Below, one piece after another: positions 1,649 to 21,633 of a stretch of 64,000 bases of DNA. Both the position numbers and the translations under genes were made by a program. Position 1 is the stretch's first letter. Each line of letters begins with the position of its first letter. The notes below the pieces were generated by a model that saw only the letters and a list, made by a program, of their open reading frames with translations, made no database searches and had not been told where the DNA came from. The stretch spans positions 1 to 64,000 of the IMG/VR virus record IMGVR_UViG_3300020050_012045; one strand, written 5' to 3'. The DNA is from a virus. Its lineage: Duplodnaviria; Caudoviricetes.

Positions 1649-2023
1649 ATGCCGCTTATTACCCCTACCCCCGCGACGCTCAAAAAATACGGTTTAAGTC
1701 TCGAAGAATGGCAAGCGATGGCCGACGCTCAAGACCATAAGTGTTTTGTGTGTCAGCAGGAACCCAAGAAGGGGCGCTTAAATTGCGACCATGAGCATGT
1801 CTTTCGCTGGAAATGGATGAAACCAGAAGAGCGAAAGCTGTTTTGTCGCGGACTCCTCTGCTATACTTGCAATTACCATCACCTAGGTAGGTCAATGACG
1901 ATTGCTAAGGCTCAGAGAATAATTGAGTATCTACAAGCTTATATGGCACGTCGTCCGAAAGAAATTCCCGTAGCTGTTAAACCAAAGAAGAAAAAGAAGA
2001 TTAAGAAAGGCAAGGCAAAGTGA
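1649..2023 (+). CDS. Recombination endonuclease VII-like (Holliday junction resolvase family)
   Basis: YGLSLEEW...Q..CxxC...DHEH...RGLLCxxCN pattern. Confidence 0.85.
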   Translation: MPLITPTPATLKKYGLSLEEWQAMADAQDHKCFVCQQEPKKGRLNCDHEHVFRWKWMKPEERKLFCRGLLCYTCNYHHLGRSMTIAKAQRIIEYLQAYMARRPKEIPVAVKPKKKKKIKKGKAK

Positions 2024-4857
2024 GCGAAATTTCAAATCTGGCCAAGGTAGTAATCCAACGAACGTACTCTCGTAAAAAGGAGAACGGTAAACTTGAAACC
2101 TGGGCAGAAATCGTAGAACGTGCAATTCGCGGAAACACTCGAAACTTCAACGTCTCCCAAGAGGAGATTGATCGTCTTTGGTACTTTTTAATCAATCGCA
2201 AAGCTGGTCCCGCTGGACGTGGCTGGTGGTTCAGCGGTACAAAAGCGCATGAAAAGCTTGGCGGCGTAGCATTGTCCAACTGTTGGTATTTGAACGCCGA
2301 CAGTTGGGAGAATTACGTTCAAGCCGAAGATCTTCTGATGCTAGGGGGTGGTGTTGGAATGTCAGTTGAACACCGCTTCGTAAGCAAGCTTCCAAAGATC
2401 AAGAAAGGTGTAAAAATTAGCCACCTTCCGACTAAGGACGCTCAGTTTATCGTACCGGACAGTCGAGAAGGATGGTGTGAACTTACCCGAAAAGTTCTGG
2501 AAGCGTTCTTTGTGACGGGAAAGGGGTTCACCTGGTCAACAGTGTGTATCCGTGGAGCAGGGGAACCCATCCATGGATTTGGGGGCTACGCATCTGGGCC
2601 GATGCCTTTAATTACGTTTACCGACAAAGTGACCTCACTGCTACAGGCTCGTGAAGGCAAGTCAGTTCGCCCAATCGACGCAGCCGATCTTCTCTGCTGT
2701 ATCGGCGAGCTAGTCGTGAGTGGAAACGTTCGCAGAAGTGCATTAATCCTTCTTGGTGACGCCTGGGACAAAGAATACCTAAAGGCCAAGCGTTGGGATC
2801 TTGGACCCATTCCTACACAACGTGCTATGGCAAATTACTCTGTGGTCGTTGATGACATGGAAGACGTTCACCCATTGTTCTGGAAAACATACGAACAAGG
2901 CGAGCCATTCGGCATCATGAATCGCAAGAATGTTCAAAAGTATGGTCGAATGGGAGAACTCAAAGCAGACAAGGCTGTGGGGCTCAATCCTTGTGTCCCG
3001 GCAGGAACGCAAATCTTGACTGACAAGGGGTATTTTGCGATAGATTCTCTACTTGGTCATACTGTCAACGTTTGGAATGGTAGTGAGTTCTCGCCAGTTC
3101 AACCCCAAGTTACAGGTCACAATCAAAATCTGGTCAAGGTTACGTTAAGCTCAGGTCAGGAACTCATCTGTACTGAGGCTCATAACTTCCCTGTGAAAAT
3201 GGGAAACTCTTTCGAGCTAGTGAGAGCCAAGGATTTGCGTACCGGACTTGCTTTGGCAAAATTTGAATTGCCGATTGTTCAGTCGGGTACTGAAGTATCA
3301 GCAGCGCAAGCATACTCTCAAGGGTTCTACTCTGGCGATGGAAATACTAGCGATTCCGAGGCTACCCGCAAGTACATCCACATGTATGGAGAGAAAACTC
3401 TCTGTGCTGAAAGAATGAGCGGCAAGCTAGGTAGCTTCGATCCATTACAAGATCGAGCTAGTTTTGCGCTGGATTTCATCCCAGCTGCAAAGAATTTCGT
3501 TCCGCTCAGCTGGAACTTGACTTCACGCTTGGAATGGCTAGCTGGCGTATTGGATGCTGAAGGGACTGAACTGAAAGAGGGCGGTACTCAAGTGACGTCA
3601 GTCGACCGCGAATTTCTTATCCAGACTCAAAAACTTTTGACTACCATGGGGGTGAGCAGCAAGATCAGTAAGTCAAGAGATGCTGGTCCACGTCTAATGC
3701 CAGACGGCAGGGGCGGGAGTAAATTTTACGATTGCCAAGCTTCGTATCGTATTTGTGTTGGGGCTGTTCAGGTTCAGTCGTTAAAGAAGCTTGGACTTAA
3801 GTGCGAGCGTCTGTCCTTTGACAAGACTCCGCAACGTGACGCTTCACGTTTCGTTACGGTGTTGGAGGTTGTTCCAGCTGGTGTTGCCGATACCGTTTAC
3901 TGCTTCAAAGAGGGTAAGAAAGGCTTGGGAACCTTTGAAGGTATTGTAACTGGACAATGCGCGGAAGCCACCCTTGAGTCCGGTGAGGCGTGCAATCTCC
4001 AGGATATCGCTTTATCCAACATCGACTCTGAAGAAGAGTTTATTGAGGCGGCCCGACTTATGCATCGGTGGGGCAAACGAGTAGCGATGGAGCGTTATCA
4101 CTGGGAAAACTCTCAGGAAGTAATCTCTCGTAATTATCGAATTGGAACTGGGATCACCGGCTGTCTTCGGTCTCCTCTGTTTACGCCAGACGTTTTGGAT
4201 CGTGCGTACGCCGCAATTCAAGATGAGAACGTTAAATATTCAAAAGAACTGGGTATCCCAGAAAGCATTCGCACAACTGTAGTTAAGCCATCCGGCACGG
4301 TATCGAAGTGCTACGATATGGCTGGATACGAAGGGATTCACGCGGCTTATAGCCGACACTACATCCAGCGAGTGCGTTTCGCAGCTAATGACGCATTGGT
4401 TCAAAAGTTGCGTGATGCTGGACATAAAATTGAACCAGTCATTCGTTTTGATGGCTCGCTAGATCACTCCACTGTCGTCTGTGATTTCTACGAACAGGCT
4501 CCAGAAGGATTTCCGGTTGCGGACGATGCCGATTGGGATATGATGAAGCAACTTGAAATCCTCAAGATGGCTCAAAAGCACTGGGCAGACCAAGCTGTTT
4601 CGGTTACAATTTATTATAAGCGCGAAGAGTTAGATCAACTCAAGTCTTGGTTGACTGAAAATCTCAAGGAGATCAAGTCAATAAGCTTCCTGTGCCATAG
4701 TGAGCATGGATTTATCCAAGCACCAAAGGAAAAGATCACCAAAGAACAGTACGATGAGCTGTCTTCTAAAGTTAAGCCGGTAAACCTGGATGACCTGACT
4801 GATGCTGGCGACTTATTGGATCTAGAATGCTCAAATGGTTCCTGCCCAATACGCTAA
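2020..4857 (+). CDS. nrdJ: Class II (AdoCbl-dependent, monomeric RTPR-type) ribonucleotide reductase containing an intein
   Basis: RTYSR, PAGRG, NC, GGGVG, VSGNVRRSA, NP|C-AE active site, CNL, TVVKPSGT, C-terminal CSNGSCP. Confidence 0.93.
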   Translation: MSEISNLAKVVIQRTYSRKKENGKLETWAEIVERAIRGNTRNFNVSQEEIDRLWYFLINRKAGPAGRGWWFSGTKAHEKLGGVALSNCWYLNADSWENYVQAEDLLMLGGGVGMSVEHRFVSKLPKIKKGVKISHLPTKDAQFIVPDSREGWCELTRKVLEAFFVTGKGFTWSTVCIRGAGEPIHGFGGYASGPMPLITFTDKVTSLLQAREGKSVRPIDAADLLCCIGELVVSGNVRRSALILLGDAWDKEYLKAKRWDLGPIPTQRAMANYSVVVDDMEDVHPLFWKTYEQGEPFGIMNRKNVQKYGRMGELKADKAVGLNPCVPAGTQILTDKGYFAIDSLLGHTVNVWNGSEFSPVQPQVTGHNQNLVKVTLSSGQELICTEAHNFPVKMGNSFELVRAKDLRTGLALAKFELPIVQSGTEVSAAQAYSQGFYSGDGNTSDSEATRKYIHMYGEKTLCAERMSGKLGSFDPLQDRASFALDFIPAAKNFVPLSWNLTSRLEWLAGVLDAEGTELKEGGTQVTSVDREFLIQTQKLLTTMGVSSKISKSRDAGPRLMPDGRGGSKFYDCQASYRICVGAVQVQSLKKLGLKCERLSFDKTPQRDASRFVTVLEVVPAGVADTVYCFKEGKKGLGTFEGIVTGQCAEATLESGEACNLQDIALSNIDSEEEFIEAARLMHRWGKRVAMERYHWENSQEVISRNYRIGTGITGCLRSPLFTPDVLDRAYAAIQDENVKYSKELGIPESIRTTVVKPSGTVSKCYDMAGYEGIHAAYSRHYIQRVRFAANDALVQKLRDAGHKIEPVIRFDGSLDHSTVVCDFYEQAPEGFPVADDADWDMMKQLEILKMAQKHWADQAVSVTIYYKREELDQLKSWLTENLKEIKSISFLCHSEHGFIQAPKEKITKEQYDELSSKVKPVNLDDLTDAGDLLDLECSNGSCPIR
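2992..3957 (+). mobile_element. 322-aa intein with LAGLIDADG homing endonuclease, ending in Gln
   Basis: Starts CVPAGTQILTDKG right after NP; endonuclease blocks GFYSGDG and LAGVLDAEG; ends VYCF...GIVTGQ before CAE; excision restores NPCAE. Confidence 0.92.
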
Positions 4858-9012: not shown

Positions 9013-9379
9013 AGAGACATTAGAAGCCGACCTTCGCGATGCCATCCGCCTAGCATACGCTATTGGTTCGGAAATCGAGGCGATCCGATTCAGAATCCAA
9101 ACCGAAGAGATTATCTCCAAGGATTTGTTGGCTCAACTCTGGAACAACAAAAAACAGATACAGGCCGAGTTGGCACAAGATGTGATTAATATGCTTGAAG
9201 TTAAACAGTTCATTTACGAACGCAAACACATTAAAGAGCTAGTTGTCAGGAATCAAACCCATCTAAAGGCTAGCAGCATGGCTTTAGACAAAAACATCGC
9301 AGAAAAGCGAGCGACAGAGATGAAGATGGAATCGATCTTGAAACAAATTGGCCAATTTGGTAAGGTAATGAACCTATGA
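9002..9379 (+). CDS. hypothetical coiled-coil protein
   Basis: Probable GTG start at 9002 in frame with track ORF 8930; GCTACTA at 8967 upstream. Confidence 0.65.
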   Translation: MPSKETLEADLRDAIRLAYAIGSEIEAIRFRIQTEEIISKDLLAQLWNNKKQIQAELAQDVINMLEVKQFIYERKHIKELVVRNQTHLKASSMALDKNIAEKRATEMKMESILKQIGQFGKVMNL

Positions 9380-10452
9380 GTGATTGCTCTACATTCAAAT
9401 TCAAACTGAAGTCATCTGGCAAGAGCCTAAAACCTCTTGCTGCTAAGGTGAACTACGTTTGGAACTACTGTAATCGAACTAGCTACACCGCTATCCGTCG
9501 TGATTATAAGTGGTTGAGCGGATTTGATTTGAGCAATTTGACAGCCGGATCTGCCAGAAATCTAAAACTTAACGCCCAGACGATTCAATCCGTCTGCACG
9601 CAATTTGTTCAATGCAGAAACCAAGCGAAGAAAGCCAAGCTTAAGCCTCGGTACGTCACGGGCAGGAACAGGAGCCTAAGCTGGATTCCGATGAAATTCG
9701 ATGGTTTCAAAATCACCAACGATTCCGTTAATTTCATGGGGAAATCTTACCGTTTCTACAAATCCCGTGAGATCGAAGGTGAAATTAAAACCGGGGCGTT
9801 CGTCCAGGACGCCGTAGGCGACTGGTGGCTAACAGTAACTTGCAAAATCGAGACGAAGTCAACCGGGAATCGTACGCCCGTAGGTATCGATCTTGGCTTC
9901 AAATCAATCGCTGTCACTTCTGAAGGTGAAGATTTTGTTAACCCTAAATTCACCCAGAAGTACGCTGACAAACTGGCTAATGCTCAGCGATACCGCCACA
10001 AAAAGGCGGTTACCCGACTTCATCGGAAAATTGCACGAAGTCGTGCTGATAACCTTCACAAAATTTCACGTCAACTGGTTGATAAATATGGAAAAATTTA
10101 TGTAGGAGACCTAAAACTCAAAGCTTCTAAATCATCGAACGATTCAAGTTACCGTGGTTTAATTCAAATGCTAACCTATAAAGCCAGTAGGCTTGGTCAG
10201 CAGGTTCATCTCGTACCCGAGATGGGCACCACAGTAACTTGCAGTTTTTGTCTGGAGAGGACTGGGCCGCAAGGCCAGAGTGGACTCTCTGTAAGAGAAT
10301 GGACTTGTGACGGTTGTGGACGAAGTCACCTGCGTGATCAAAACGCAGCTTGCAACATTCTCCGGTTGGGATTACAACTGCCTAAGACTTCGTGCCTGAC
10401 TACGGTTGGGTCGAATGAGGGGTTTACTGCGAATAATGGTGGAAAATCATGA
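9376..10452 (+). CDS. tnpB: TnpB-family RNA-guided endonuclease (IS200/IS605 OrfB) with non-canonical RuvC-II
   Basis: TFKFKL/VWNY N-terminus, RuvC-I GIDLG, NLHKISRQLV, IYVGDL (E to G), VPE..TTVTCSFC, WTCDGC, RuvC-III RDQNAACNI. Confidence 0.92.
   Translation: MSDCSTFKFKLKSSGKSLKPLAAKVNYVWNYCNRTSYTAIRRDYKWLSGFDLSNLTAGSARNLKLNAQTIQSVCTQFVQCRNQAKKAKLKPRYVTGRNRSLSWIPMKFDGFKITNDSVNFMGKSYRFYKSREIEGEIKTGAFVQDAVGDWWLTVTCKIETKSTGNRTPVGIDLGFKSIAVTSEGEDFVNPKFTQKYADKLANAQRYRHKKAVTRLHRKIARSRADNLHKISRQLVDKYGKIYVGDLKLKASKSSNDSSYRGLIQMLTYKASRLGQQVHLVPEMGTTVTCSFCLERTGPQGQSGLSVREWTCDGCGRSHLRDQNAACNILRLGLQLPKTSCLTTVGSNEGFTANNGGKS
10389..10440 (+). ncRNA. Candidate 3' end of TnpB omegaRNA (hairpin plus guide)
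   Basis: Hairpin TTCG-t-GCCTGAC-TACG-GTTGGGT-CGAA (10389-10415) at the 3' end of tnpB, where omegaRNAs lie; boundaries inferred. Confidence 0.4.
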
Positions 10453-10694
10453 GTGATTTGAATGTAACCGCCGATGACGTCAAAGATGCAATTGAGAACG
10501 ATCCGGATTTTATTGCCTTGGCCAGGTTCGATTGTTCCCTAGCTAAGTTCGTTGAGCGGTACCCTGACGGGGCTCCTTCTAACGTAATGATCGCTAAGGC
10601 GCTTTGTACCTCGGAAGAGGACGTAGAGAACATCTACCAGGAAGCTATGAAGTTCTTGAAAATCGCTTTCACTCAAGAAACGGACATTGACTGA
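10449..10694 (+). CDS. Stand-alone sigma region-4-like HTH protein
   Basis: SNVMIAKALCTSEEDVENIYQEAMKFLK resembles sigma 4.2 (T..EIA..LG.S.E.V..I...A..KLK). Confidence 0.6.
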   Translation: MSDLNVTADDVKDAIENDPDFIALARFDCSLAKFVERYPDGAPSNVMIAKALCTSEEDVENIYQEAMKFLKIAFTQETDID

Positions 10695-11100
10695 GATGTG
10701 GTGGCAGCCGATAAACCCTAGTCTTTCCGGGGCATCAACAGGCTGGGGTGCCACCGACGAGGGTGAACAAACGCCAGAGATGGCGTACTGGGACGTGCAC
10801 GACTGGACGGGGCATAAAATTGGCCGAGTGCCTGTTCCGAGTGAAGCTTTAGGTCCAAAGCTGGACGATCTGTGCATGATCCCGGGGTTTAAGGCTAGCT
10901 GGGCTAAGTACGTTCTCATGTACCGTCCTGAGACCAAGACATACGAAAATATCGACGGCACAGTGGAGTTTAGGCTGTTCCCGGCAGCAACCAAACCTAA
11001 GCTAGCGGCTGATTGGTGCAAGAAGTGTGAAATGCAGGGGCAGTTCGAGCGTACAACGCTTATGTGTCCTGGGTGCCGATGCGTGATTGGAGGATTCTAA
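10687..11100 (+). CDS. hypothetical protein with C-terminal Zn ribbon
   Basis: CKKC...CPGC at C-terminus; start may be ATG 10696. Confidence 0.65.
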   Translation: MTEMWWQPINPSLSGASTGWGATDEGEQTPEMAYWDVHDWTGHKIGRVPVPSEALGPKLDDLCMIPGFKASWAKYVLMYRPETKTYENIDGTVEFRLFPAATKPKLAADWCKKCEMQGQFERTTLMCPGCRCVIGGF

Positions 11101-11278
11101 GATGACGGTTGAGCAAGTGGTTATTGATTACAAACACTGGCAACGCATGACTGAGTTTGGCTCTGACACTAAGTTAGATTTCTGGCTTGATATCCTGTGG
11201 TCTGAATTGACGGATGAGCAGATTCAGGAAGTTCTGCTATTGCTTCATCCAAGCAAGAGTGCTACTGTCCAGGAATGA
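11087..11278 (+). CDS. small hypothetical protein
   Basis: Fills the gap; stop overlaps dnaE start (ATGA); start may be 11102. Confidence 0.55.
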   Translation: MEDSKMTVEQVVIDYKHWQRMTEFGSDTKLDFWLDILWSELTDEQIQEVLLLLHPSKSATVQE

Positions 11279-14200
11279 GTCTACGTAACTTTATTTCCCC
11301 ACATGTTCATCAGATGTCGTTCGATTCGGCGTCTACCCCTACAGAGTTTGCGGAAAAAGAGATTGAGCTTGGAACTGGTGCACTTGTGTGCACAGACCAC
11401 GGATTCATGGGAGCAAACTCTGAAGTCTACGATCTAGCCAAAAAGCACAAACTGACCCCGATCTTAGGGATCGAAGCGTACCTCAGAGACGACAATTGCC
11501 CCATTCTGGAAAAGCGTGGGATTGAAAAGGAGAAGGGCGGGTATTCACATTACTCCAAGTATTGCCATTTCTGCATGCATGCGATGGATGAGACCGCGCA
11601 CAACCAGCTGTCTATTCGATTATCAGACGCATTTTCGGATCGCGGCGAACGCCATGGTTCCGAGATTAAGCCAATTTGGACTTGGGCTGATGTAGAGCAT
11701 CTTGGTCAATACAACGTAACCGCCTCGGCGGGGTGCCTTATCGGAATCGCCAGCCGTCATCTGATGAACGGTCGAGCGGATATTGCCGAAGATTACTACA
11801 CCAAGATGCGCGGGTCCGTTAAGCCCGGGAACTTCATCGTAGAGATCTTCCCTCATGATTGCTCGACCTACTATGAAAAGGGCGTATTCCTTACGTTCTC
11901 TGATGGAACAAAAAGCAAGTACAGTACGACCAAAAAGCTGCGAATCAATTTAGACGGAAAAGAGCTGGAGTTGCCAGCAGCTGATTTTGACTCAGGATTT
12001 CATAAGTTCAAGACTCAACCAACTTTAATCGCCTATAAGCACTACCAAAAGTGGATCGATCTTGAGCCAAAGACAGTAACAGCGTGCCTCTCAATCGAGG
12101 GGTTTATTGAGAACCCATGTACTGAGTGGGCGGGAGGGACGGATTATCAAAGAGGTGCGAATCTCTTCATGATGCGTATGGCCGAAAAATACGGCGACAA
12201 GATACTCCTGTCTGACGATGCACACTTTACCGATCCGTCTCAGCATGAGATTCAAACTATGAAGCTGACGTCAAGCGGGGGAAACTGGAGGTTCCCTTTG
12301 TCGTACCATCGTCAAACTTCACAGGAAGCTTTTAATTTCCTTAGCAGCACACTAGGCATCTCCGAGAAGACGTTCGAGGGATGGGTTGACAACTCTTATG
12401 AGTTTCGGGACAAGTTTAAGGATTTCAAGTTTACTGACAAAATTCAGCTCCCAACATCTAGGTACCCCACAGATACCGTCGCTCATTTGAAGAAACTAAT
12501 TGAGAAGCACGGTCGGATGCGCTGGAACGATCCAGCATGGGTAGCTAGACTTAAACAAGAGATCACTCTTTTTCGAGACAATGGAAAGCAAGATCTGCTT
12601 CCGTATTTCTTTTTGGCCGAGGAATGCGTCTATCAATATGTGAAGCAAAGAAAACTACCTGGACCACTTCGTGGAAGCTCCGGTGGGTCCGCAATCGCAT
12701 TCCTTCTCGGGATCACTCATCTCGACCCTATCAAGCATAATCTGTCGATCGATCGCTTCATAACTTTAGATCGTATTCAATCAGACAAATGGCCAGACGT
12801 TGATATGGATTTTGGCGATCCAGACTTCTTTAAGCACCCAGAGACAGGGTGGCTTTTTACTGAGTTCGGGGAGCGTGCAGCCGCTATTGCCACCAAAACC
12901 ACCATGCGTCTGAAGTCGACAATCAAAGACGCAATGCGCTCAAGGTACGGAGAGGTTGCTTATGACATTCAAGTGCTGTGTAAGAATTTACCTGACCCGC
13001 CACAAGGCGTAACGGACGAAGATTTTCTGTGGGGGTACGTGTCAGAGGACGAAAAAGAGGTTAAAGGACTATGGGAAGAGTCAAAACCTTTAAGAGAGTT
13101 TGCTGAACGAGAACCCCAGGTCTGGGAGGTGGTTAAGAAAGCAATCGGCCTAACTAAGGGGTTTTCCCGTCATGCTTCTGCCTTTCTTGTCTCTGAGATC
13201 CCGATTAAAGAGTTCATTCCAACTATGGTTGTCAGTGGAGTGCGAACAACTCAATACAACATGACAGGAGTTGAGGCTCGCGGCGGCCTCAAGATGGACT
13301 TCCTTGGGCTTTCCACCTTGAATGACCTGGAAGATTGCATAAATTCAGTACAGGCTCGCACAACTGGACTGATTACTGAAGCTGCCACACTTGATGAAAT
13401 CAAAGTCCCCGCTCACTTCCTGGTTCCCTTCAAGAAGCAGCTTCACTCGATCTGGGATCTCCCTGAAGAGGTGGAGGTGTTCCGCGATTTATGTCGAGGC
13501 GATACAGAGACAGTATTTCAGCTATCCACTGCGAGTGCTATCAAGTGGCTGCGTGAGTTCAAGAACCCTTTAGAGGATGGAACTCCTGCCATCAACACAA
13601 AAGAGGGGATCGCAACTTTTACGGCACTCGACCGCCCTGGACCGCTAGACGCTTTTGTTCAGACTGACGACGAAAAACAGATCAACATGCTTCAGGAATA
13701 CGCTCGCAGAGCAAGAGGGATGGAGCCAACAGGCGAGATTAAGGCACTTTCCTCCTTGCTCAAGGAGTCTTTCGGCATTCTTATTTTTCAAGAAAGCTTG
13801 CAGCGGGTATATCAAGAGCTAACCGGGTGTGACGGAATCAAGGCAACAGAGTTCCGTACAAACATTGCAAAAAAGAAGATGGATAAGGTAGAAGCTGCAT
13901 ACCCGTTTTTCATGGAAAATGCCTCACCCAAAGTCGGACGCGCCGAAGCTGAGAAAATCTTCCAAAACCTTAAGGTTTTTGGAAGATATGGGTTTTGCCG
14001 GGCCCATGCACGCGGCTACGGTGAGATTGCTTACGCTTGCGCCTTCCTGAAACGCTTCTATCCGCTTGAATGGTGGACAGCAGTTTTGAAGAACGCCAAG
14101 AAGGACAAGATCATCGAGAAGTTGTGGTCACACGCAAGTCACATGGTGCTCCCACCAGATGTCCAGCTGTCTGGCGAGTTCTTCCAAATCGAAGGCACCA

Positions 14201-15237
14201 AGATTCGCGCTCCATTGTCCTTCCTCAAGGGCGTAGGCGAAAAAGCTCACGAAGAGCTTGTCAGAGGTCGCCCATACGCTGACTTCAAGGATTTTGCCGA
14301 CCGTACCCTTCAGACCAAGCTCAAGGGCGCTAAGCCTAAGCTGGAGGATGGCCAGCCGGTCATCGACAAGAAGACTGGCCTGGTCAAAATGGTGGCTGGA
14401 CGCTCAGCTGTCGGTCAAACGATGGTGTTTAAGCTGATTGCAGTTGGAGCTATGGATTCGTTATTTCCACCATCCACGCCTAACCAGAAAATGGAGATGT
14501 ACGCCCAGTACCTGGCTGAGATTACCGCCCCTAAAACTCGCAAGAAAGCGGTTGTGGCTAAAATTCCACCAGAGTGGAAGAACCTTGACCCACTGATTCA
14601 ATTTCAGGTGTCAAAGCAGATCCTACCAGTGCACCCTCAGTCACTGTCTGAAATCGTTCACGGCTACTCACACCTGCACCTAGAGCGCCGTGAGAAAGAC
14701 AAGCAGACCGCGTATATCCAGCACTTTAAGAATCAAGCGCTGGCTGATGCAATGCGTGCAGAATCCCTTGACTTAAAGCCAATTCGGCTATTAGATGGGA
14801 ATCAAGTTCGTTACTTTAACGATCAATTCCAGATCCCAGAAGGTTCCGGGCGGTGTTTATATGGAGTGTACGGGTATGTCCTCGCAGAACGTCGATTCAG
14901 TTTCCCCAAGAAAGCTCCCCGTGAAGAGCAAAAAGACGCGCTCAGTCTCACCTTTGATTCGTGTGGTGAAACGTTTGATATGGTTAAGTGGCCGGACAGG
15001 AAGACCGAGCAGCTTACTGCGCCATCCGAAGATTTAACTGGATCGGTTTGCTTTTTTGTGGTCTCTAGGTACACGAACAGCAAGCCAGCTGTCATTGAAA
15101 TGATTTATGTCCTGAAACCCAAATTGGAAAAGAGTAAAGATGAGTCAGACACAAACGGAAGCACTATCCCTGTTATTGAGTCAACTGAAGCAGGTTCGGA
15201 CGCTAGCGTCGACGGAGCTTCACAACTGGCCCCCTGA
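11275..15237 (+). CDS. dnaE: DNA polymerase III alpha subunit (family C)
   Basis: PHP (HVH..SFD, TDHG, GIEAY, SDDAH), RGSSGGS, PDVDMDF, HASA, KMDFLGLSTL, VFQL, RPGPL, IFQE, YGFCRAHA. Confidence 0.96.
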   Translation: MSLRNFISPHVHQMSFDSASTPTEFAEKEIELGTGALVCTDHGFMGANSEVYDLAKKHKLTPILGIEAYLRDDNCPILEKRGIEKEKGGYSHYSKYCHFCMHAMDETAHNQLSIRLSDAFSDRGERHGSEIKPIWTWADVEHLGQYNVTASAGCLIGIASRHLMNGRADIAEDYYTKMRGSVKPGNFIVEIFPHDCSTYYEKGVFLTFSDGTKSKYSTTKKLRINLDGKELELPAADFDSGFHKFKTQPTLIAYKHYQKWIDLEPKTVTACLSIEGFIENPCTEWAGGTDYQRGANLFMMRMAEKYGDKILLSDDAHFTDPSQHEIQTMKLTSSGGNWRFPLSYHRQTSQEAFNFLSSTLGISEKTFEGWVDNSYEFRDKFKDFKFTDKIQLPTSRYPTDTVAHLKKLIEKHGRMRWNDPAWVARLKQEITLFRDNGKQDLLPYFFLAEECVYQYVKQRKLPGPLRGSSGGSAIAFLLGITHLDPIKHNLSIDRFITLDRIQSDKWPDVDMDFGDPDFFKHPETGWLFTEFGERAAAIATKTTMRLKSTIKDAMRSRYGEVAYDIQVLCKNLPDPPQGVTDEDFLWGYVSEDEKEVKGLWEESKPLREFAEREPQVWEVVKKAIGLTKGFSRHASAFLVSEIPIKEFIPTMVVSGVRTTQYNMTGVEARGGLKMDFLGLSTLNDLEDCINSVQARTTGLITEAATLDEIKVPAHFLVPFKKQLHSIWDLPEEVEVFRDLCRGDTETVFQLSTASAIKWLREFKNPLEDGTPAINTKEGIATFTALDRPGPLDAFVQTDDEKQINMLQEYARRARGMEPTGEIKALSSLLKESFGILIFQESLQRVYQELTGCDGIKATEFRTNIAKKKMDKVEAAYPFFMENASPKVGRAEAEKIFQNLKVFGRYGFCRAHARGYGEIAYACAFLKRFYPLEWWTAVLKNAKKDKIIEKLWSHASHMVLPPDVQLSGEFFQIEGTKIRAPLSFLKGVGEKAHEELVRGRPYADFKDFADRTLQTKLKGAKPKLEDGQPVIDKKTGLVKMVAGRSAVGQTMVFKLIAVGAMDSLFPPSTPNQKMEMYAQYLAEITAPKTRKKAVVAKIPPEWKNLDPLIQFQVSKQILPVHPQSLSEIVHGYSHLHLERREKDKQTAYIQHFKNQALADAMRAESLDLKPIRLLDGNQVRYFNDQFQIPEGSGRCLYGVYGYVLAERRFSFPKKAPREEQKDALSLTFDSCGETFDMVKWPDRKTEQLTAPSEDLTGSVCFFVVSRYTNSKPAVIEMIYVLKPKLEKSKDESDTNGSTIPVIESTEAGSDASVDGASQLAP

Positions 15238-15940
15238 TAGCCGTCCAGGAATGGAGATGGCGGTCAATCAAGCCAAGGTGGAGATTGGTGGATTACTCAA
15301 GAAGTACCGCCAAATTATGGCCGATAACTCCGCTGTTGTGTTCGTTACTGGGAGCGACGCCGCTTGCGCTAAGCTCGAAGAGGAAGGCCGGATTCAGGGA
15401 ACTATCGTGATTGACGGCTCTGGATTGTTCCGTTCAATTGGCGAGAACATCTTGAGCAAGCTTGGGGATGAAAAGCGCCTGCTCCCAGGGCGAGTAATCG
15501 AGATCGAAGCTCAGCTTCACGAGGCGGCGAATTCGTTTGGATTCAATGCTTCATGGCTGCGAGTCGATACGGCGGCGTACAATACGCTCACCAAGACGCT
15601 TCCTGAGGTTACTAAGGTGGTTCGTGATACCGCTCGAATGTCGACTCCAGGGTACGTACCTCCGCTAGGTGACTTACTGGGAGTTTTGGCAGCACGAGAA
15701 ACATTCTTTACGGAGTGTGAGAAAGCAAGCTATGCTGAGCTGCCAGTTGCAGTTATGGTATCACGGCTTCAGCCAGAAGAACTCAAGGGCTTTCAAGAGA
15801 ATTTTATGCCAGGGCGTCCATTCACGGTGGTTGACGCTGGCAAGACCAAATCGGCTGAAAAGTCGCTAGTTGACGCGAGTAAAGAGCTTGCTAAAAAGCT
15901 CGGTTTAGACTCGAAACAAACCCAGAACGGGAAGGAATAA
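15140..15940 (+). CDS. hypothetical protein (replication cluster)
   Basis: 266-aa ORF between dnaE and SSB. Confidence 0.7.
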   Translation: MSQTQTEALSLLLSQLKQVRTLASTELHNWPPDSRPGMEMAVNQAKVEIGGLLKKYRQIMADNSAVVFVTGSDAACAKLEEEGRIQGTIVIDGSGLFRSIGENILSKLGDEKRLLPGRVIEIEAQLHEAANSFGFNASWLRVDTAAYNTLTKTLPEVTKVVRDTARMSTPGYVPPLGDLLGVLAARETFFTECEKASYAELPVAVMVSRLQPEELKGFQENFMPGRPFTVVDAGKTKSAEKSLVDASKELAKKLGLDSKQTQNGKE

Positions 15941-15941
15941 C

Positions 15942-16943
15942 ATGACAGTACAGATCGGTAAACCTCAGTTTCGTAATTCAGCGCCTCGTAACATTTTTAA
16001 GATCAAGGATGGGTCGAACCTGTTTCGCATCTTGCCTCCGATCGGAGCCCTGGCTGAAAAGGGCACTTGGGCGGTGTACGCCAAGATCCATTGGGGGGTA
16101 AAAACCTCTGATGGTAAGTACATGAATTTTTACTGCGTAGAGAAGAAGGACAACAAGACCAAGATGGTCACAGAGCGTTGTGCTTTGTGTGACGCAATCG
16201 CCGAAAAGAAGGTCGAGCGTGACGCCCAGGTCAAGAAGTTCACTGACCAGGGGCTTGGTCGTGAAGAGATCGTGGTAAAGACCAAGTTCTTGGAAGACTG
16301 GCTTCGCAAGTACAATTTAGAGACCAAGTGGAACGTAAATGTGATGAACCGCGAAGGTGAAGTTGGGCTGTTGAAGTTTGCTCACTCGTACTACAAGGAT
16401 TTGGAAATTCACATTGGTAACCTGATGTACCCAGAGAAGGGGCCAGACGGCAAGCCACGTAAGCCAGTTGATCCAATTGGTGCGGAAGACGGCGTTCTGT
16501 TTGACTTCCTGTACAAGGAAGGAAACCAGAAGACACGTGTTCAGAAAGTGAACATTGTCAAAGAACAACGTGACGTTGGTGGTGAAATCGTTGAGGTGAC
16601 CAAGCGTTTTCCGTTGACGGAGGCAATGATTACTAAGTTCATCGATGGTCATTATGACCTATCTAACCTGGCGCGCATTTTGACACCAAAAGAAATCGAA
16701 TCGATTGTCAGCTCGAAGTTTAGCACTGACGTTATCGACTCAATTTATACAGCTGGTCGGGCAGTTGCTAAGGCCCCAGAAGTGGCTAAGGTAGTCGAGG
16801 CTGAGGAAGAAGAGCCAACCGAGACCGTAGCTACTTTGCCGGTTGCTAAGATCCAGGTTGAGGAAGCTCCAGCTCCCCAAGCTGCTCCTATCTCGGCTGC
16901 TGCATCGTCCGATGACGACTTCTTCGCCCAATTCCAGAAATAA
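15942..16943 (+). CDS. Single-stranded DNA-binding protein (gp32-like)
   Basis: FRILPP motif, H..C..C..C Zn site, acidic/aromatic tail DDDFFAQFQK, adjacent to recA. Confidence 0.75.
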   Translation: MTVQIGKPQFRNSAPRNIFKIKDGSNLFRILPPIGALAEKGTWAVYAKIHWGVKTSDGKYMNFYCVEKKDNKTKMVTERCALCDAIAEKKVERDAQVKKFTDQGLGREEIVVKTKFLEDWLRKYNLETKWNVNVMNREGEVGLLKFAHSYYKDLEIHIGNLMYPEKGPDGKPRKPVDPIGAEDGVLFDFLYKEGNQKTRVQKVNIVKEQRDVGGEIVEVTKRFPLTEAMITKFIDGHYDLSNLARILTPKEIESIVSSKFSTDVIDSIYTAGRAVAKAPEVAKVVEAEEEEPTETVATLPVAKIQVEEAPAPQAAPISAAASSDDDFFAQFQK

Positions 16944-16998
16944 TCACTTTACAACTTAACGACTAAGTAAGAAGCTTACCTTCTAAGGAGACACGTGT

Positions 16999-18159
16999 AT
17001 GGCTGCCAACAAGTGGATGACTCGGCTACAGAAACACGAAACCGCACGCAAAATGGAGTACAATCCGTTTGCCCATGTGATTCGTTATAGTTCCCCGTAT
17101 TTGAACTGGGTGTTTGGTAATACTCACGGCATCCCGCTTGGGAAGAAAATTGCTGTATGGGGGCCAGATAAGGCAGGTAAGACAGCGACTTGCTATGACC
17201 TGATTGGAAACATTCACCGGGAAGATCCGGACGCTATCTGTGTACGATACGACACTGAAGTCCGCGATGACGTTCAGCTAACCCCGGCTATGGCGGCGGC
17301 GTTCGGAATCGATATGGATCGGTACATCTGCTATCTCGGGAATGAGCCTGAGAAGATTTTTGATCATATCAACAACGAAATCCGGGCAATGTGCCAAGAC
17401 GGCGCCCCTATTCGAGCCATCTTTATTGACTCGATTACTGGCATCATTGGCCGTCGAGCAATGAACGCTGAAGGTATCATGACCCAGCAAATTGGCGACG
17501 ATGCCAAGACACAAGCTGATGGCTTGAAGATGATTCTGGGCACGCTGCATCAGAATAAGATCGCATTGATTTTGACCGCTCAAGCTCGTGCCAACCTTGA
17601 CCCACAGACGGCTAAGTATGTTCCGTACAAGATGGCAGGGGCATGGTACCTGAAGCACTATGTTGAGTATACCCTGAAGCTTGAGCCAGCTGGCGGCGAG
17701 TTCAAGAACAAAACTCTGAGCGGCGCCGAACTAGTTGACGACTCGCTAACTGATGTTCTTGGTAAGTCTGATAAGATCGGTCACCGCATTCGTGCCACGA
17801 TGGAGAATTCATCCTGTGGTCCAAAGGGGCGTAAGGCAGAGTTTACGTTTAGCTATCGTGAAGGTGTCATTAACCGCCACGAAGAAGCGTTTCAGTTAGC
17901 CATTACTCGTGGCATCGTAGACCGCCCTAACAACACCACATATGTTATGCCTGACTTCCCCAAGGGCACTGGCAAGGATATGAGTTGGCGTGGGAAGGCG
18001 GTGTTCTTGAAAGCTGTTGAGGACAACACTGATCTGTATCAGCAGATTATCGAGCGAGTCCGTGAACAGGACATCGACCTTCAAGAGAAGGGGGCCAACA
18101 GTCGATTCTACATGCCTGAAGAGTCTGAAGGTTCGCCTGAACCGCTAACAGCCGATTGA
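16999..18159 (+). CDS. recA: RecA/UvsX-like recombinase
   Basis: Walker A GPDKAGKT, YDTE, IDSI, QARAN, AGA..LKH; SD AAGGAG. Confidence 0.9.
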   Translation: MAANKWMTRLQKHETARKMEYNPFAHVIRYSSPYLNWVFGNTHGIPLGKKIAVWGPDKAGKTATCYDLIGNIHREDPDAICVRYDTEVRDDVQLTPAMAAAFGIDMDRYICYLGNEPEKIFDHINNEIRAMCQDGAPIRAIFIDSITGIIGRRAMNAEGIMTQQIGDDAKTQADGLKMILGTLHQNKIALILTAQARANLDPQTAKYVPYKMAGAWYLKHYVEYTLKLEPAGGEFKNKTLSGAELVDDSLTDVLGKSDKIGHRIRATMENSSCGPKGRKAEFTFSYREGVINRHEEAFQLAITRGIVDRPNNTTYVMPDFPKGTGKDMSWRGKAVFLKAVEDNTDLYQQIIERVREQDIDLQEKGANSRFYMPEESEGSPEPLTAD

Positions 18160-18184
18160 CATCCCACTAGCCGTTTGTTACACT
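18156..18184 (+). promoter_or_regulatory. sigma70-like promoter
   Basis: TTGACA-N17-TACACT; predicted start about 18190. Confidence 0.75.
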
Positions 18185-18189
18185 GATAC

Positions 18190-18260
18190 CGGACGGTAGC
18201 TTAATACAAAGCCCCAGCATTGTAGTTGAGAGATGCTGGGAGTACGGCCAGCCCGTCTGC
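18190..18260 (+). tRNA. Degenerate tRNA-like RNA (possibly Thr-UGU-derived)
   Basis: Acceptor CGGACGG/CCGTCTG, U8-A9, D-stem GCTT/AAGC, imperfect anticodon arm with loop ATTGTA, T-stem GCTGG/CCAGC with non-canonical loop GAGTACGG, no CCA. Confidence 0.55.
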
Positions 18261-18269
18261 TTAGGTGCT

Positions 18270-19289
18270 ATGTCTACTGAAGAAAACATCCGCAAGCTTG
18301 TCAAGGATAATGGTATCTCCCATTGGGAGACTAGCAATAGCTACGTCTTCACCTGTCCCAGATGCAACAAGTCCGACAAGCTCTGGATGTACAAAACCAG
18401 CGGTTATTTTAAGTGCTGGGTATGCGCTGAGAACAGCAACTACAGGGGCAAGCCAGAGTATGCTTTCTGTGACCTACTAAACCAGCCGATAACTCTCATC
18501 CGCCAGGCTATCTATGGAGCAACAGACGGTCCGCTTCAAAGACTCACCATTGAGCTAAAAGATCATTGGGGCGACAGAGACGAGGACGCCGAAGAGGTAT
18601 TCTGGGTTGAACAACAAAGAACTTCTTTTGAGTGGCCCCCTGACTACGTCGACTGGCAGGATCCATGTTTTAAGAAAGCTCTGGAATACCTTGAGTCTCG
18701 TGGATTGACCATTGAAACCGTCAAAAAGTATGACATCCGATTTGCGGTACCTGAAAACCGGGTGGTGTTTCCGTACGTACTGAATGGCGTATTGGTCGGG
18801 TGGCAAGGGCGTTGGTGTGGAAAAGCTGAGGTTGTCGACCTGGACACTGGCGAGATTCGCTCAATCCCTAAAGCGCTAACTACAGCTCAGGATGACGTTA
18901 TCAAAAACAACGTTATGTTTAGTTCAAACCTAGATGTTGTCGATCACTGCGTACTGGCCGAAGGTCCACTAGACGCTCTGAAGTGCGAGCTGGCTGGTGG
19001 TAATGTTGCGGCTCTAGGCAAGGGCGTATCAGATAGCCAGATAGAGTGGATTGGAGCCAGAGTCAGCAAGCTATACCTGGCCCTAGACCTTGATGCTGCT
19101 GCTGAAATGGCACGAATCAAGAAGATCGCCTACAAAATCGGGCTAGAGGTCTATCTGATGACTCCTCCTAATCACAGAGAGGACTTCGGCGACTGCACGT
19201 TCGAGGAAGCTTATGAGTCGTTCAAGTCGGCTCAGAAGATTAGGGCTGGGCATTTATTGGTAAGCCTAGGCAAGAGAATGGTGTACTAG
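18270..19289 (+). CDS. DNA primase (DnaG/TOPRIM type)
   Basis: Zn finger CPRC..CWVC, YLESRG, RVVFP, EGPLDA, LALDLD. Confidence 0.88.
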   Translation: MSTEENIRKLVKDNGISHWETSNSYVFTCPRCNKSDKLWMYKTSGYFKCWVCAENSNYRGKPEYAFCDLLNQPITLIRQAIYGATDGPLQRLTIELKDHWGDRDEDAEEVFWVEQQRTSFEWPPDYVDWQDPCFKKALEYLESRGLTIETVKKYDIRFAVPENRVVFPYVLNGVLVGWQGRWCGKAEVVDLDTGEIRSIPKALTTAQDDVIKNNVMFSSNLDVVDHCVLAEGPLDALKCELAGGNVAALGKGVSDSQIEWIGARVSKLYLALDLDAAAEMARIKKIAYKIGLEVYLMTPPNHREDFGDCTFEEAYESFKSAQKIRAGHLLVSLGKRMVY

Positions 19290-19963
19290 CAGTATTCGTT
19301 TTCGTACCGACCTTCAGTAGCGCTAGACGTCAGACGCTGACTAGTGTCAGCAACACACCGTACCGATTTCTTAATCACCTTGTGAGCATTCTCGTTCATT
19401 CGCTGTTTCATAAAGCGGTGAAGGTTACGGCCATCTGTCAGGTCATCCCCAGTCATGTATTTGTGCAAAAACGTACACAAGTGAACCAAAGCAATAGATT
19501 TGAAGTCGCCTTGTTCATATCCAAACGAATTTAGGTGTCGAGCATAGCGGTTATAAGCTGCACAGGCGTGTTGGTCGGCCACCTTGCGCCACTTAAGCAA
19601 AAGTTCATTGGATGGATTGGGCGAGTTCTTGAACGTCTTCTCTCGAAACAAGATCGCCTCAAAGTTATCGGTGATGTTAGATCGCTTAATAGAGCCCTTG
19701 CGAACCTCAATCTGGATGTTGGCATCCACTTGAGCGTACTGAAGAAATTTGTTGATGGCTACTTGGAGTCGGGTTAGCTTGTTAGACCTGAGGTCAGAAA
19801 TGTCGATTTGTCGAGTGATATCATCGTACCCAGCACCTAACACAATTACTCTTTGGTTGACGAGAACATCGGCCCCACGTAAGCTTGCCTCGACGGAGCT
19901 ATTCTTGAGATACGATAACAGAACATTCGCGGCCTGAAGTTTCTCGGTCGTAAAGCGATCCAT
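19286..19963 (-). CDS. Putative sigma region-2-like transcription factor
   Basis: SD AGGAG; C-half LLKWRKVA..A..Y....GYEQGDFKSIALVHL..F...Y....FMKQR resembles sigma region 2; no region 4. Confidence 0.5.
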   Translation of the reverse strand: MDRFTTEKLQAANVLLSYLKNSSVEASLRGADVLVNQRVIVLGAGYDDITRQIDISDLRSNKLTRLQVAINKFLQYAQVDANIQIEVRKGSIKRSNITDNFEAILFREKTFKNSPNPSNELLLKWRKVADQHACAAYNRYARHLNSFGYEQGDFKSIALVHLCTFLHKYMTGDDLTDGRNLHRFMKQRMNENAHKVIKKSVRCVADTSQRLTSSATEGRYENEYC

Positions 19964-19980
19964 GCGTACTCCTGCTTAAA

Positions 19981-21633
19981 TTGTTCATAGGATGTCACAT
20001 AAATGAATCGGATTCAAACATTTTGAAAAAGCAGACTGACTATAAACAATTTTTCAACGAGTCGGCAATACCATTTGCGGACCATAAGCAGTCAGCCTTT
20101 CTTGGCTACCTGTTTGACAATAACAACGGATTGTTCAAGCATTACGCAGTGCTGATGGAAAAAACGTGGTTCAGCGATCCTGACCATGGGACCATTTTTG
20201 AACTAATATCCGAATACTACAAGACGTACAAAAAAGTTCACTCCCACGAGGAGATTAAGAACAGTTCACGTCTGGCGGTTAAGGACAACGATACTCAGCG
20301 GCGTATTCGCGGTAAGATCGATGCAGCGATCATCAATCGCTCGCAGTACGGAATGCAGGGGCTAGTTGACGAGCTAAACGACTGGAAGAACGCCAAAATC
20401 CTCGAAAAGACGATTACCGAATCGTCAAAATTGTTCAATGCCGGTAACTTCTCTGGTTCGACCGAGCTGTTCCAAGAAGCCATCAAAATCTACAACGATA
20501 CAACGTTTGCTAACTCAGACGTTGCGAAGCTGTCTGACTTCGGTAGCCTGATTGACTCACTGTCAGGGAAGAACTCGGTTCAATTCGGGCTTCCAATGAT
20601 GGACCGCCACCTGGCCCCAGATAATCCAACTGGTGGCTTGATGTCAGAGATGACGACGTTGTTTATTGGTGGATCGAACGCTGGTAAAACTACGTCAATG
20701 GTAACGTGTGCCATTATCAACGCAATCGCCCAACACCGTGTTCTGCTGATTTCACTAGAAGACTCCTCCTCACAGCTCCGAACTAAGATGTTCCGGTGTG
20801 CTTTGGGGATGGTGACAGTAGCCGATATTCAGCGAATCTACCAACTTGACGAAGTATCAGGTAAGCGTATGTGGGACATGCTTCGCCAAGCTGGTTCCAC
20901 ACCTAACGAGCTGATGCGTCACATGGCGAGCCCTAAGTACGCCAGTGCATTGCAAAAGTTCGCTGACTACTTCGATGATTACATTGAATATATGCCGTAC
21001 AACCGTCCGGGGATGGAAGTCGAACAACTCACCCCGCTAATCGAACGTCGCCAGGACGCTATGGTCGACCGTACAGGCAAGGGTTTCCAGCTTCTGGTGT
21101 GCGACTACCCCGCCCTGTTGACAACCTCCAGGGCATCTAAGGGGCGGATGGACCACCGGCACATCCTTGATACGGTATACGGGCACTTCACCCAACTAGC
21201 CATCCAACATAAATGGCACTCATTGGTCGCTATTCAGGCTAACCGAAACGGAGCCAAGCTCGGAAACCGAACCCACCAGGACGAAGACCGTCTGCTGGAA
21301 ATGACCGATGCCGCTGAAGCCTGGGGGCCGATTACCACTGCATCTACCGTTATCACGATTAACCGTCCACCAGACGCTCAGGCAGGGAACAGAACCTTGT
21401 ATAAACTGTGCAAGTCGCGTCAATCGCGTGTCGGATTGATTGTGGCGGCTACTAGCAATTATGACCGATTCATCGCTTACGGGAATACGTCTGAGTTCGG
21501 CTGCGTGTCGTATTATGGCAACCAGGACAACACACGGATCCTGGAAGACAAGCTGATGCCAGGAATTCACCGAGAACTAGGAATTTCTGAGCAATTAGGC
21601 GTATTTGGAGCAGAAGATGAAAAGGCCGATTAA
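19981..21633 (+). CDS. DnaB/gp41-like replicative helicase
   Basis: GGSNAGKTT, ISLED, VCDY, QANR, KSR; start uncertain (TTG 19981 or 20023). Confidence 0.88.
   Translation: MFIGCHINESDSNILKKQTDYKQFFNESAIPFADHKQSAFLGYLFDNNNGLFKHYAVLMEKTWFSDPDHGTIFELISEYYKTYKKVHSHEEIKNSSRLAVKDNDTQRRIRGKIDAAIINRSQYGMQGLVDELNDWKNAKILEKTITESSKLFNAGNFSGSTELFQEAIKIYNDTTFANSDVAKLSDFGSLIDSLSGKNSVQFGLPMMDRHLAPDNPTGGLMSEMTTLFIGGSNAGKTTSMVTCAIINAIAQHRVLLISLEDSSSQLRTKMFRCALGMVTVADIQRIYQLDEVSGKRMWDMLRQAGSTPNELMRHMASPKYASALQKFADYFDDYIEYMPYNRPGMEVEQLTPLIERRQDAMVDRTGKGFQLLVCDYPALLTTSRASKGRMDHRHILDTVYGHFTQLAIQHKWHSLVAIQANRNGAKLGNRTHQDEDRLLEMTDAAEAWGPITTASTVITINRPPDAQAGNRTLYKLCKSRQSRVGLIVAATSNYDRFIAYGNTSEFGCVSYYGNQDNTRILEDKLMPGIHRELGISEQLGVFGAEDEKAD

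Follow-up and report, generated by a model that had tools for sequence, protein, structure and literature searches.

A sigma-domain-2-like protein, a sigma-4/LuxR-like protein and a truncated sigma factor encoded by a 158.6-kb phage

Protein A in the replication module

The window studied here is a stretch of 64,000 nucleotides that forms the first 64 kb of a complete virus record of 158,596 bp with direct terminal repeats (IMG/VR record IMGVR_UViG_3300020050_012045; Duplodnaviria, Caudoviricetes). It contains a replication module in the order Pol III alpha, SSB-like protein, RecA/UvsX-like protein, primase, protein A (on the minus strand), DnaB-type helicase and ClpP. An earlier note on the window had proposed that protein A and protein B, the latter encoded just upstream of Pol III alpha, form a split sigma factor that redirects host RNA polymerase. 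A third sigma-like gene, for a protein of 349 aa, lies outside the window (Table 1). Among the relatives of the phage only Myxococcus phage Mx1 is named; it shares the gene order of the window. A megablast search of known phages with the Pol III alpha gene gave no close relative.

The ATG of A is preceded by an AGGAG Shine-Dalgarno sequence at a distance of 7 nt. The homologues of A share 44–78% identity with it, and the five close ones are 216–235 aa long. A profile search (E ≤ 1e-3) gave a family of 245 representative clusters, none of which is annotated. At 280–580 aa most members are longer than A; a helical module is conserved at the C-terminus of 109 of 153 members, and zinc ribbons occur in some. 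In Mx1 (where the A homologue is WNM70287.1), in L004, L015, L016 and L018 and in the P0003 contigs the gene is antisense between helicase and primase, with no exception among them, and this position is kept among relatives of just 20–45% identity. Mx1 (OR576727.2) also encodes a second protein (120454-120720, minus strand, 166-aa frame) with only the C-terminal module of the long forms. The family matches in G008, G009 and G015 (L125, L127 and L128) contain 1, 1 and 4 in-frame stop codons, respectively; the gene in G015 appears degraded, as would be expected if A is dispensable.

The promoter-like site upstream of A is a consensus match only, and such sites occur in this region at chance number. 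The helicase ORF is annotated from a TTG start at 19981, just 17 nt from the start of A (window 19964–20068). Its similarity to other DnaB proteins starts at residues 20–28. The helicase probably begins at a later codon in reality, and a divergent promoter region would then remain.

The AlphaFold2 (AF2) model of A (predicted local distance difference test, pLDDT, 70.7) has an alpha/beta domain (residues 1–77), a disordered conserved motif (about 96–118) and four helices within residues 119–215 (119–139, 141–146, 151–170 and 181–215). The motif is the most conserved linear segment of the family; among 128 relatives Arg107 is kept in 99%, Asn116 in 88%, and Phe111 and Pro117 in 79%. Helix 151–170 is the analogue of sigma region 2.2 and bears the near-invariant Asp153 (98% of relatives). 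The last helix, 181–215, is long and basic (pI 11), with a near-invariant Gln187, conserved Arg188 and Lys199, and few aromatic residues. A ends right after this helix, so that it has no helix-turn-helix (HTH).

The model was searched against 48,161 solved chains with VIA-align. Sigma factors made up about 20 of the 32 best rows, with Z 5–6.2, rmsd 3–4 Å and 70–85 residues aligned within A residues 111–210. The sigma rows included ShbA, SigE, E. coli sigma70, Taq SigA domain 2 with -10 DNA, SigW, WhiG, RpoS, sigma32 and SigH, and T4 gp55 was matched with Z 4.6. No row named helicase loader was among the 50 best. Modest as these Z values are, the enrichment in one family is not. A BFVD search gave one significant relative, with phage sigma factors among its weak viral rows; a shape search of the ESM Atlas gave nothing informative. 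The view that the C-terminal half of A is region-2-like and lacks an HTH, taken from the earlier note, thus stands at the level of the fold, but not at the level of the sequence (see below).

A complex of A (residues 95–225) with E. coli beta-prime 235–345 was then modelled. Its interface score, ipSAE, was 0.84 versus 0.21 for the best of three controls, with at least 80% contact agreement between runs and a partner pLDDT of at least 78. Among solved complexes 58 of 80 reach the mark applied to this score, compared with 2 of 110 mismatched pairs; as sigma–beta-prime complexes have already been solved, passing it shows likeness to them and not binding. In the model the clamp helices of beta-prime (267–298) face A residues 145–163, Asp153 touches beta-prime residues 274, 275, 278 and 298, and the 96–118 motif, disordered in the single chain, lies against beta-prime. 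The interface residues of A are more conserved than the others (2.07 versus 1.56 bits, Mann-Whitney p 0.0025), and 9 of the 20 most conserved positions of A sit in the modelled interface. The contact of Asp153 presumably echoes those of sigma70 Asp403 and of gp55 E70, D74 and E77 on the clamp helices. In gp55, acidic residues of the third helix contact the clamp helices (PMC7892883). These models suggest that the helical half of A works like sigma domain 2. Helix 151–170 with Asp153, together with the preceding F..R...F...PNP motif, would dock on the clamp helices of the host beta-prime, and the conserved basic face (Gln187, Arg188 and Lys199) would be left free, plausibly for DNA. On these structural models, A is probably an accessory sigma-2-like protein of a new family that binds RNA polymerase.

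Protein B and a sigma factor that ends after region 4.1

Homologues of B were found in 20 other loci at 26–73% identity, and B lies just upstream of Pol III alpha in each locus whose neighbours were examined. In Mx1 (OR576727.2) the homologue is unannotated (L005:3986-4201, minus strand); it is found in the 193-nt gap that separates Pol III alpha from the next annotated gene, upstream of Pol III alpha at about 157.45-157.64 kb of the record. In the present window the B gene follows a tnpB gene (9376-10452, plus strand), which is seen as an insertion by comparison with contig L003, where the homologues of B and of the 149-aa gene overlap directly. This tnpB overlaps each of its neighbours by 4 nt, leaving no space for the ends of an insertion sequence, and a tnpB homologue (39% identity) lies about 4.4 kb upstream of the B gene in L008 and L009.

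The model of B (pLDDT 78.7) has four helices. Its residues 35–77 superpose at 2.0–2.5 Å over about 40 residues, with about 20% identity and Z values of just 2.2–2.7, on region 4.2 of FliA, SigL, SigW, SigF, SigH, SigB and WhiG and on the LuxR-type proteins DesR and EsrB. The family profile (21 members) matches the NarL DNA-binding domain in register (E 0.006). The best Pfam matches of the 21 relatives, all below threshold, were Sigma70_r4 (E 0.039, three members), GerE (0.0029, two members) and PhyR_sigma-like (0.0075). The language-model neighbours of B are viral clusters of 74–79 aa with Sigma70_r4 in 63–83% of their members. B itself has nothing at threshold in Pfam, PHROGs or NCBIfam, no match to PF04545, PF08281 or PF00196 at the curated cut-off, and is missed by a genome-wide PF04545 search. 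The family is acidic throughout (pI 4.1–5.4) and has a conserved N-terminal D-P-D-F motif. Its would-be recognition helix opens with S/T-E-E-[DE]-V-E rather than with basic or polar residues, which fits protein binding better than DNA reading. Convergent but weak evidence thus makes B an acidic HTH protein of the sigma-4/LuxR type, and the description of B as nothing but a region-4.2-like HTH is tentatively upheld, at the fold level only, with no curated cut-off reached. This free-standing four-helix protein, encoded at the start of the replication operon, would by analogy with sigma region 4 and T4 gp33 occupy the tip of the beta flap.

A complete sigma factor elsewhere in the genome had been named as a finding that could explain the motifs without A and B. 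A whole-genome search revealed a 349-aa sigma-70-family protein, which is not complete. It matches TIGR02980, TIGR02937 and TIGR02479 (SigB/F/G, ECF and FliA models) below their cut-offs. At E ≤ 0.001 it has 137 relatives, over 130 of them equal in length, on contigs of up to about 180 kb; JGI names some of them sigma. The profile of the 349-aa protein can be aligned to solved RpoD/SigA (E 7e-11) from region 1.2/2.1 to region 4.1, and the alignment stops at residues 567–571 of 613 in E. coli and at residue 372 of 423 in Thermus SigA. The relatives end 0–21 residues past that stop in 120 of 120 cases, and the region 4.2 HTH is absent. The gene overlaps a downstream 100-aa ORF by 4 nt. Mx1 has its sigma gene at 2080-3075. 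One relative, P0219 (605 aa), has within the sigma an insertion of about 260 aa whose first residue is Cys and whose last two are His-Asn, with Ser next in the sequence, as is usual for inteins.

The missing region 4.2 of the 349-aa sigma is the very piece that B resembles. The two proteins may together form a late sigma factor split inside region 4, with A as an optional extra. This is possible but doubtful. The sigma stops exactly where region 4.2 begins, and it is region 4.2, roughly the final 40 residues, of FliA, SigW, SigH, SigB and WhiG that the HTH of B superposes on. Both genes are present in Mx1, in G001 and in 11 of 11 complete relatives (from 22 large related contigs that were selected for the phage sigma and of which 11 are complete genomes), and a spacing of 14–19 kb between them is conserved in the three genomes checked. 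However, both are core genes, so that their co-occurrence is weak evidence. There is no fused homologue and no profile similarity, and what speaks for the pairing is solely complementary content and the co-occurrence of two core genes. B also has a 4.1-like helix of its own, its acidic recognition helix is unlikely to read a -35 element, and the late motif CAATCTTT described below has no -35-like block, so that region 4.2 is perhaps unneeded. If B completes anything, the 349-aa sigma is the more likely partner than A, and if a split sigma exists here, the 349-aa sigma with B is a better candidate than A with B.

B could also be an ordinary LuxR/GerE-type DNA-binding regulator that activates or autorepresses the replication operon of which it is the first gene, with no direct tie to sigma. 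The NarL and GerE profile matches and the place of B immediately upstream of Pol III alpha, in all loci with flanks examined, favour such a role. The acidity of the family, with E-E-[DE]-V-E where LuxR and sigma-4 proteins have basic or polar DNA contacts, argues against it, as do the language-model neighbours, which are Sigma70_r4 clusters and not GerE. We consider this reading unlikely.

Inheritance, promoter-like motifs and the function of A

The earlier note had found no phage RNA polymerase in the window, and this holds for the beta and beta-prime genes in the whole 158.6-kb genome. T7-type RNA polymerase (PF00940) was not detected either, but the control of that search gave no signal. 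No sliding-clamp gene was found with PF00712 while controls were detected; T4 gp45-type clamps were not searched. No clamp-binding tail (QL[SD]LF-like) was recognised by eye in six close A homologues.

Two motifs, GCTAYTA and CAATCTT, had been put forward as non-sigma70 promoters. CAATCTT occurs 12 times in the window versus 10.4 expected, that is at chance. GCTAYTA is found 16 times in the window versus 7.5 expected, but the genome-wide count of 31 is not enriched. GCTAYTA placed 6 nt before an ATG occurs 8 times in the genome versus about 0.5 expected and resembles a class of leaderless promoters; none of the 19 distant relatives, with or without A, has it, and it is therefore uninformative on A. 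The 8-mer CAATCTTT, examined in connection with CAATCTT, is strand-specific genome-wide, with 18 copies versus about 4.8 expected, all on the minus strand. Most of them are 6–33 nt before the starts of minus-strand genes, with adenine preferred at -1 and without a conserved -35-like block upstream. When relatives without A were counted, CAATCTTT was again enriched over the control (13 versus 0 in G013, 15 versus 3 in G014, 6 versus 0 in G011 and 9 versus 1 in G006). These results indicate that A is not the reader of CAATCTTT.

B is present in 21 of the 22 related contigs and in 11 of the 11 complete genomes. In contrast, A is present in 10 of the 22 contigs and in 6 of the 11 complete genomes, so that B works without A in at least five complete relatives and the two are not co-inherited. 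Only 62 bp, and no A gene, separate primase from helicase in L006. B also accompanies the long form of A, with its extra C-terminal module, in Mx1 and L016, which shows that B is not a fragment broken off A. The idea that B is the missing C-terminal part of A was ruled out, because a hidden Markov model (HMM) of the module built from 109 long relatives gave no match in six frames of this genome and phmmer of B against 153 A-family members was empty; no fused A-B form was found, and the C-terminal module of the long forms is not a B-like HTH.

The absence of A from half of the relatives also bears on a replication role. A might be a helicase loader or a primase–helicase coupling factor whose bundle merely resembles sigma domain 2, in line with its invariant place between helicase and primase in relatives at 20–45% identity, the lack of any sequence link to sigma and Z values of 5–6 that are modest for a helical bundle. 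But A is dispensable in relatives that retain the same helicase and primase genes. It is antisense, with a promoter-like site and a Shine-Dalgarno sequence of its own, which is unusual for a replisome part. Its best structural rows are mostly sigma, and its modelled beta-prime interface passes the controls and is its most conserved surface. A replication accessory is thus improbable.

The two-subunit sigma of the gp55/gp33 kind proposed in the earlier note, in which A and B together read GCTAYTA and/or CAATCTT on host RNA polymerase, is very improbable: the domain contents are complementary, A is modelled on the clamp helices, B is acidic like gp33 (whose gene is unlinked to that of gp55 in T4 too; PMC7892883), single-element promoter-like motifs do exist and B is found in all five A-bearing loci with a visible Pol III alpha upstream region (G000, L004, Mx1, L015 and L016), but B, being a core gene, makes that co-occurrence uninformative and persists without A, as does CAATCTTT, the genes are encoded on opposite strands at a distance of 9 kb with neither fusion nor adjacency, and neither a clamp gene nor a clamp-binding tail was found.

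Taken together, A and B are probably not two halves of one factor. Our overall reading, to which we give a probability of about one half, is that A is an accessory sigma-2-like protein and B a core sigma-4/LuxR-like protein, that they are not obligate partners, and that CAATCTTT, the late motif made of a single element, is more likely read by the 349-aa sigma (regions 1.2 to 4.1), alone or with B. A would then either serve a minor promoter class as a sigma-2-only specificity factor like gp55, or compete with the host sigma and displace it. What the data show directly is that the genes are real, how they are arranged and co-occur, that the folds are alike and that the 349-aa sigma is truncated, whereas binding of A to RNA polymerase (backed by a model only), binding of B to the flap and each match of a promoter to a factor are inferences. 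A wider form of this reading is more tentative and, we think, rather unlikely. In it, the whole phage group (about 160–170 kb, including Mx1) would redirect host RNA polymerase with an undescribed modular sigma kit: a core sigma cut after region 4.1, the core acidic B acting in trans on the beta flap (a split inside region 4), and, in about half of the lineages, a sigma-2-only A, antisense in the replication module, that opens a further promoter class or evicts the host sigma from the clamp helices.

Several results weigh against the overall reading. A has no sequence-level link to any sigma model. Nothing reached threshold in Pfam, PHROGs or NCBIfam, no sigma match was seen at E ≤ 1, none of the 128 relatives matches a sigma model at E ≤ 0.1, and the A profile against PDB sequences gave only chance matches (eL21 and S100) and no sigma. 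By hhalign, the A family is unrelated to the phage sigma family, its C-terminal module is unrelated to sigma or to B, and no relation was found between the B, A and sigma families. The Z values of 5–6 for A can be reached by chance for helical bundles, according to the search tool's own note, and those of B are low, at most 3.7. Foldseek against the PDB, named in the earlier note as a check, returned nothing significant for the model of A or of B. The modelled beta-prime is that of E. coli, as a stand-in for that of the host. The best profile match of B is a DNA-binding LuxR-type domain, which fits an ordinary regulator. There is no fused sigma–B form among 120 sigma relatives, the longer ones having internal insertions, and the joint occurrence of B and the 349-aa sigma says little since both are core genes. 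Finally, A was possibly overlooked in divergent relatives.

A LAGLIDADG domain lies inside a class II ribonucleotide reductase encoded in the window (2020-4857, plus strand) and probably represents an intein or an inserted homing endonuclease. In L016 (15950-19781, minus strand), gene calling gives Pol III alpha as separate ORFs of 714 aa and 565 aa, possibly owing to a split gene or a frameshift.

Table 1. Positions of the genes, protein segments and motifs discussed in the text (window coordinates unless marked otherwise)
Feature	Position	Strand	Remark
Protein A, 225 aa, pI 9.4 (basic)	19286..19963	-	ORF confirmed; member of unannotated phage family
N-terminal alpha/beta domain of A, residues 1-80	19724..19963	-	no convincing fold match
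Most conserved linear motif of A family, residues 96-118, F-E-x-[VI]-x-x-R-x-x-x-F-x-x-x-P-N-P	19610..19678	-	
Sigma-domain-2-like helical bundle of A, residues 119-215	19319..19609	-	AF2 model, structural search, complex model
Sigma70-type promoter-like site TTGCCG-18-TATAGT	20039..20068	-	upstream of A, within annotated helicase 5' end
Protein B, 81 aa, pI 4.1 (acidic)	10449..10694	+	ORF confirmed; after inserted tnpB gene
Sigma-4/LuxR-type HTH of B, residues 31-75	10539..10673	+	helices 31-37, 45-52, 56-75
349-aa sigma-70-family protein	G000:C1:150038-151087 (= L001:1072-2121)	-	whole-genome Sigma70_r2 search
Pol III alpha gene	11275-15237		replication module
Primase gene	18270-19289	+	
DnaB-type helicase gene	19981-21633	+	
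GCTAYTA 6 nt before ATG	window 833, 1636, 5917, 52207, 53310; genome 72839, 96217, 135323		
CAATCTTT sites	window 24460, 31370, 41998, 44608, 50328, 54248, 55610; 11 more beyond window	-	

Comparison with known systems

To our knowledge, very few systems (T4, SPO1 and recently Tn916) are described in which partial sigma factors take over the host's RNA polymerase. The sigma-2-like bundle of A, with its long last helix and its modelled contact to the clamp helices through an acidic residue, resembles T4 gp55 (PMC7892883). B is small, acidic and of sigma-4-like geometry, as gp33 is in function, and here as in T4 the genes are unlinked and the late motif consists of one element and no -35 block. 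In contrast to the T4 pair, A and B have no sequence similarity to gp55 and gp33 and no PHROG match, and no sliding-clamp gene (PF00712) or clamp-binding tail was recognised. A has an extra N-terminal alpha/beta domain and the PNP motif, it is dispensable in half of the relatives whereas B is universal, and this phage has a further, nearly full-length sigma. Unlike what would hold for a gp55-like late factor, CAATCTTT is not co-inherited with A (G013, G014, G011 and G006).

Two-subunit sigma factors are represented by SigO-RsoA of B. subtilis, Sig7-Sig8 of Tn916 and gp33-gp34 of SPO1 (10.64898/2026.10.01.756105). They share with the present phage the placement of sigma-2-like and sigma-4-like functions on separate polypeptides. 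The partner genes of such systems are usually adjacent and co-inherited. A and B, encoded on opposite strands at a distance of 9 kb, do not strictly co-occur, and in a pair of the 349-aa sigma and B the break would fall between regions 4.1 and 4.2. We know of no description of a sigma factor split at that point.

Compared with sigma-70 groups 3 and 4 (SigB/F/G, FliA/WhiG and ECF), the 349-aa protein has regions 1.2 to 4.1, and A and B are like single domains by fold. However, the 349-aa protein lacks region 4.2, A lacks regions 3 and 4, both A and B are below every curated cut-off, and the recognition helix of B is acidic. B is in register with the HTH of NarL (E 0.006), and one relative matches GerE (E 0.0029), but it differs from LuxR/GerE proteins in standing alone (70–80 aa), in its acidity, in a D-P-D-F motif outside GerE and in falling below the Pfam cut-off.

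A defines 245 unannotated clusters with a testable predicted beta-prime-binding surface and one invariant aspartate. A widespread environmental phage group thus carries three sigma-like parts of differing inheritance, which can be tested with the cultured phage Mx1 on Myxococcus xanthus. A sigma family uniformly without a -35 reader, a universal free region-4-like protein and a strand-specific promoter-like motif that lacks a -35 block together provide a new case for asking how much of the sigma protein promoter recognition requires.

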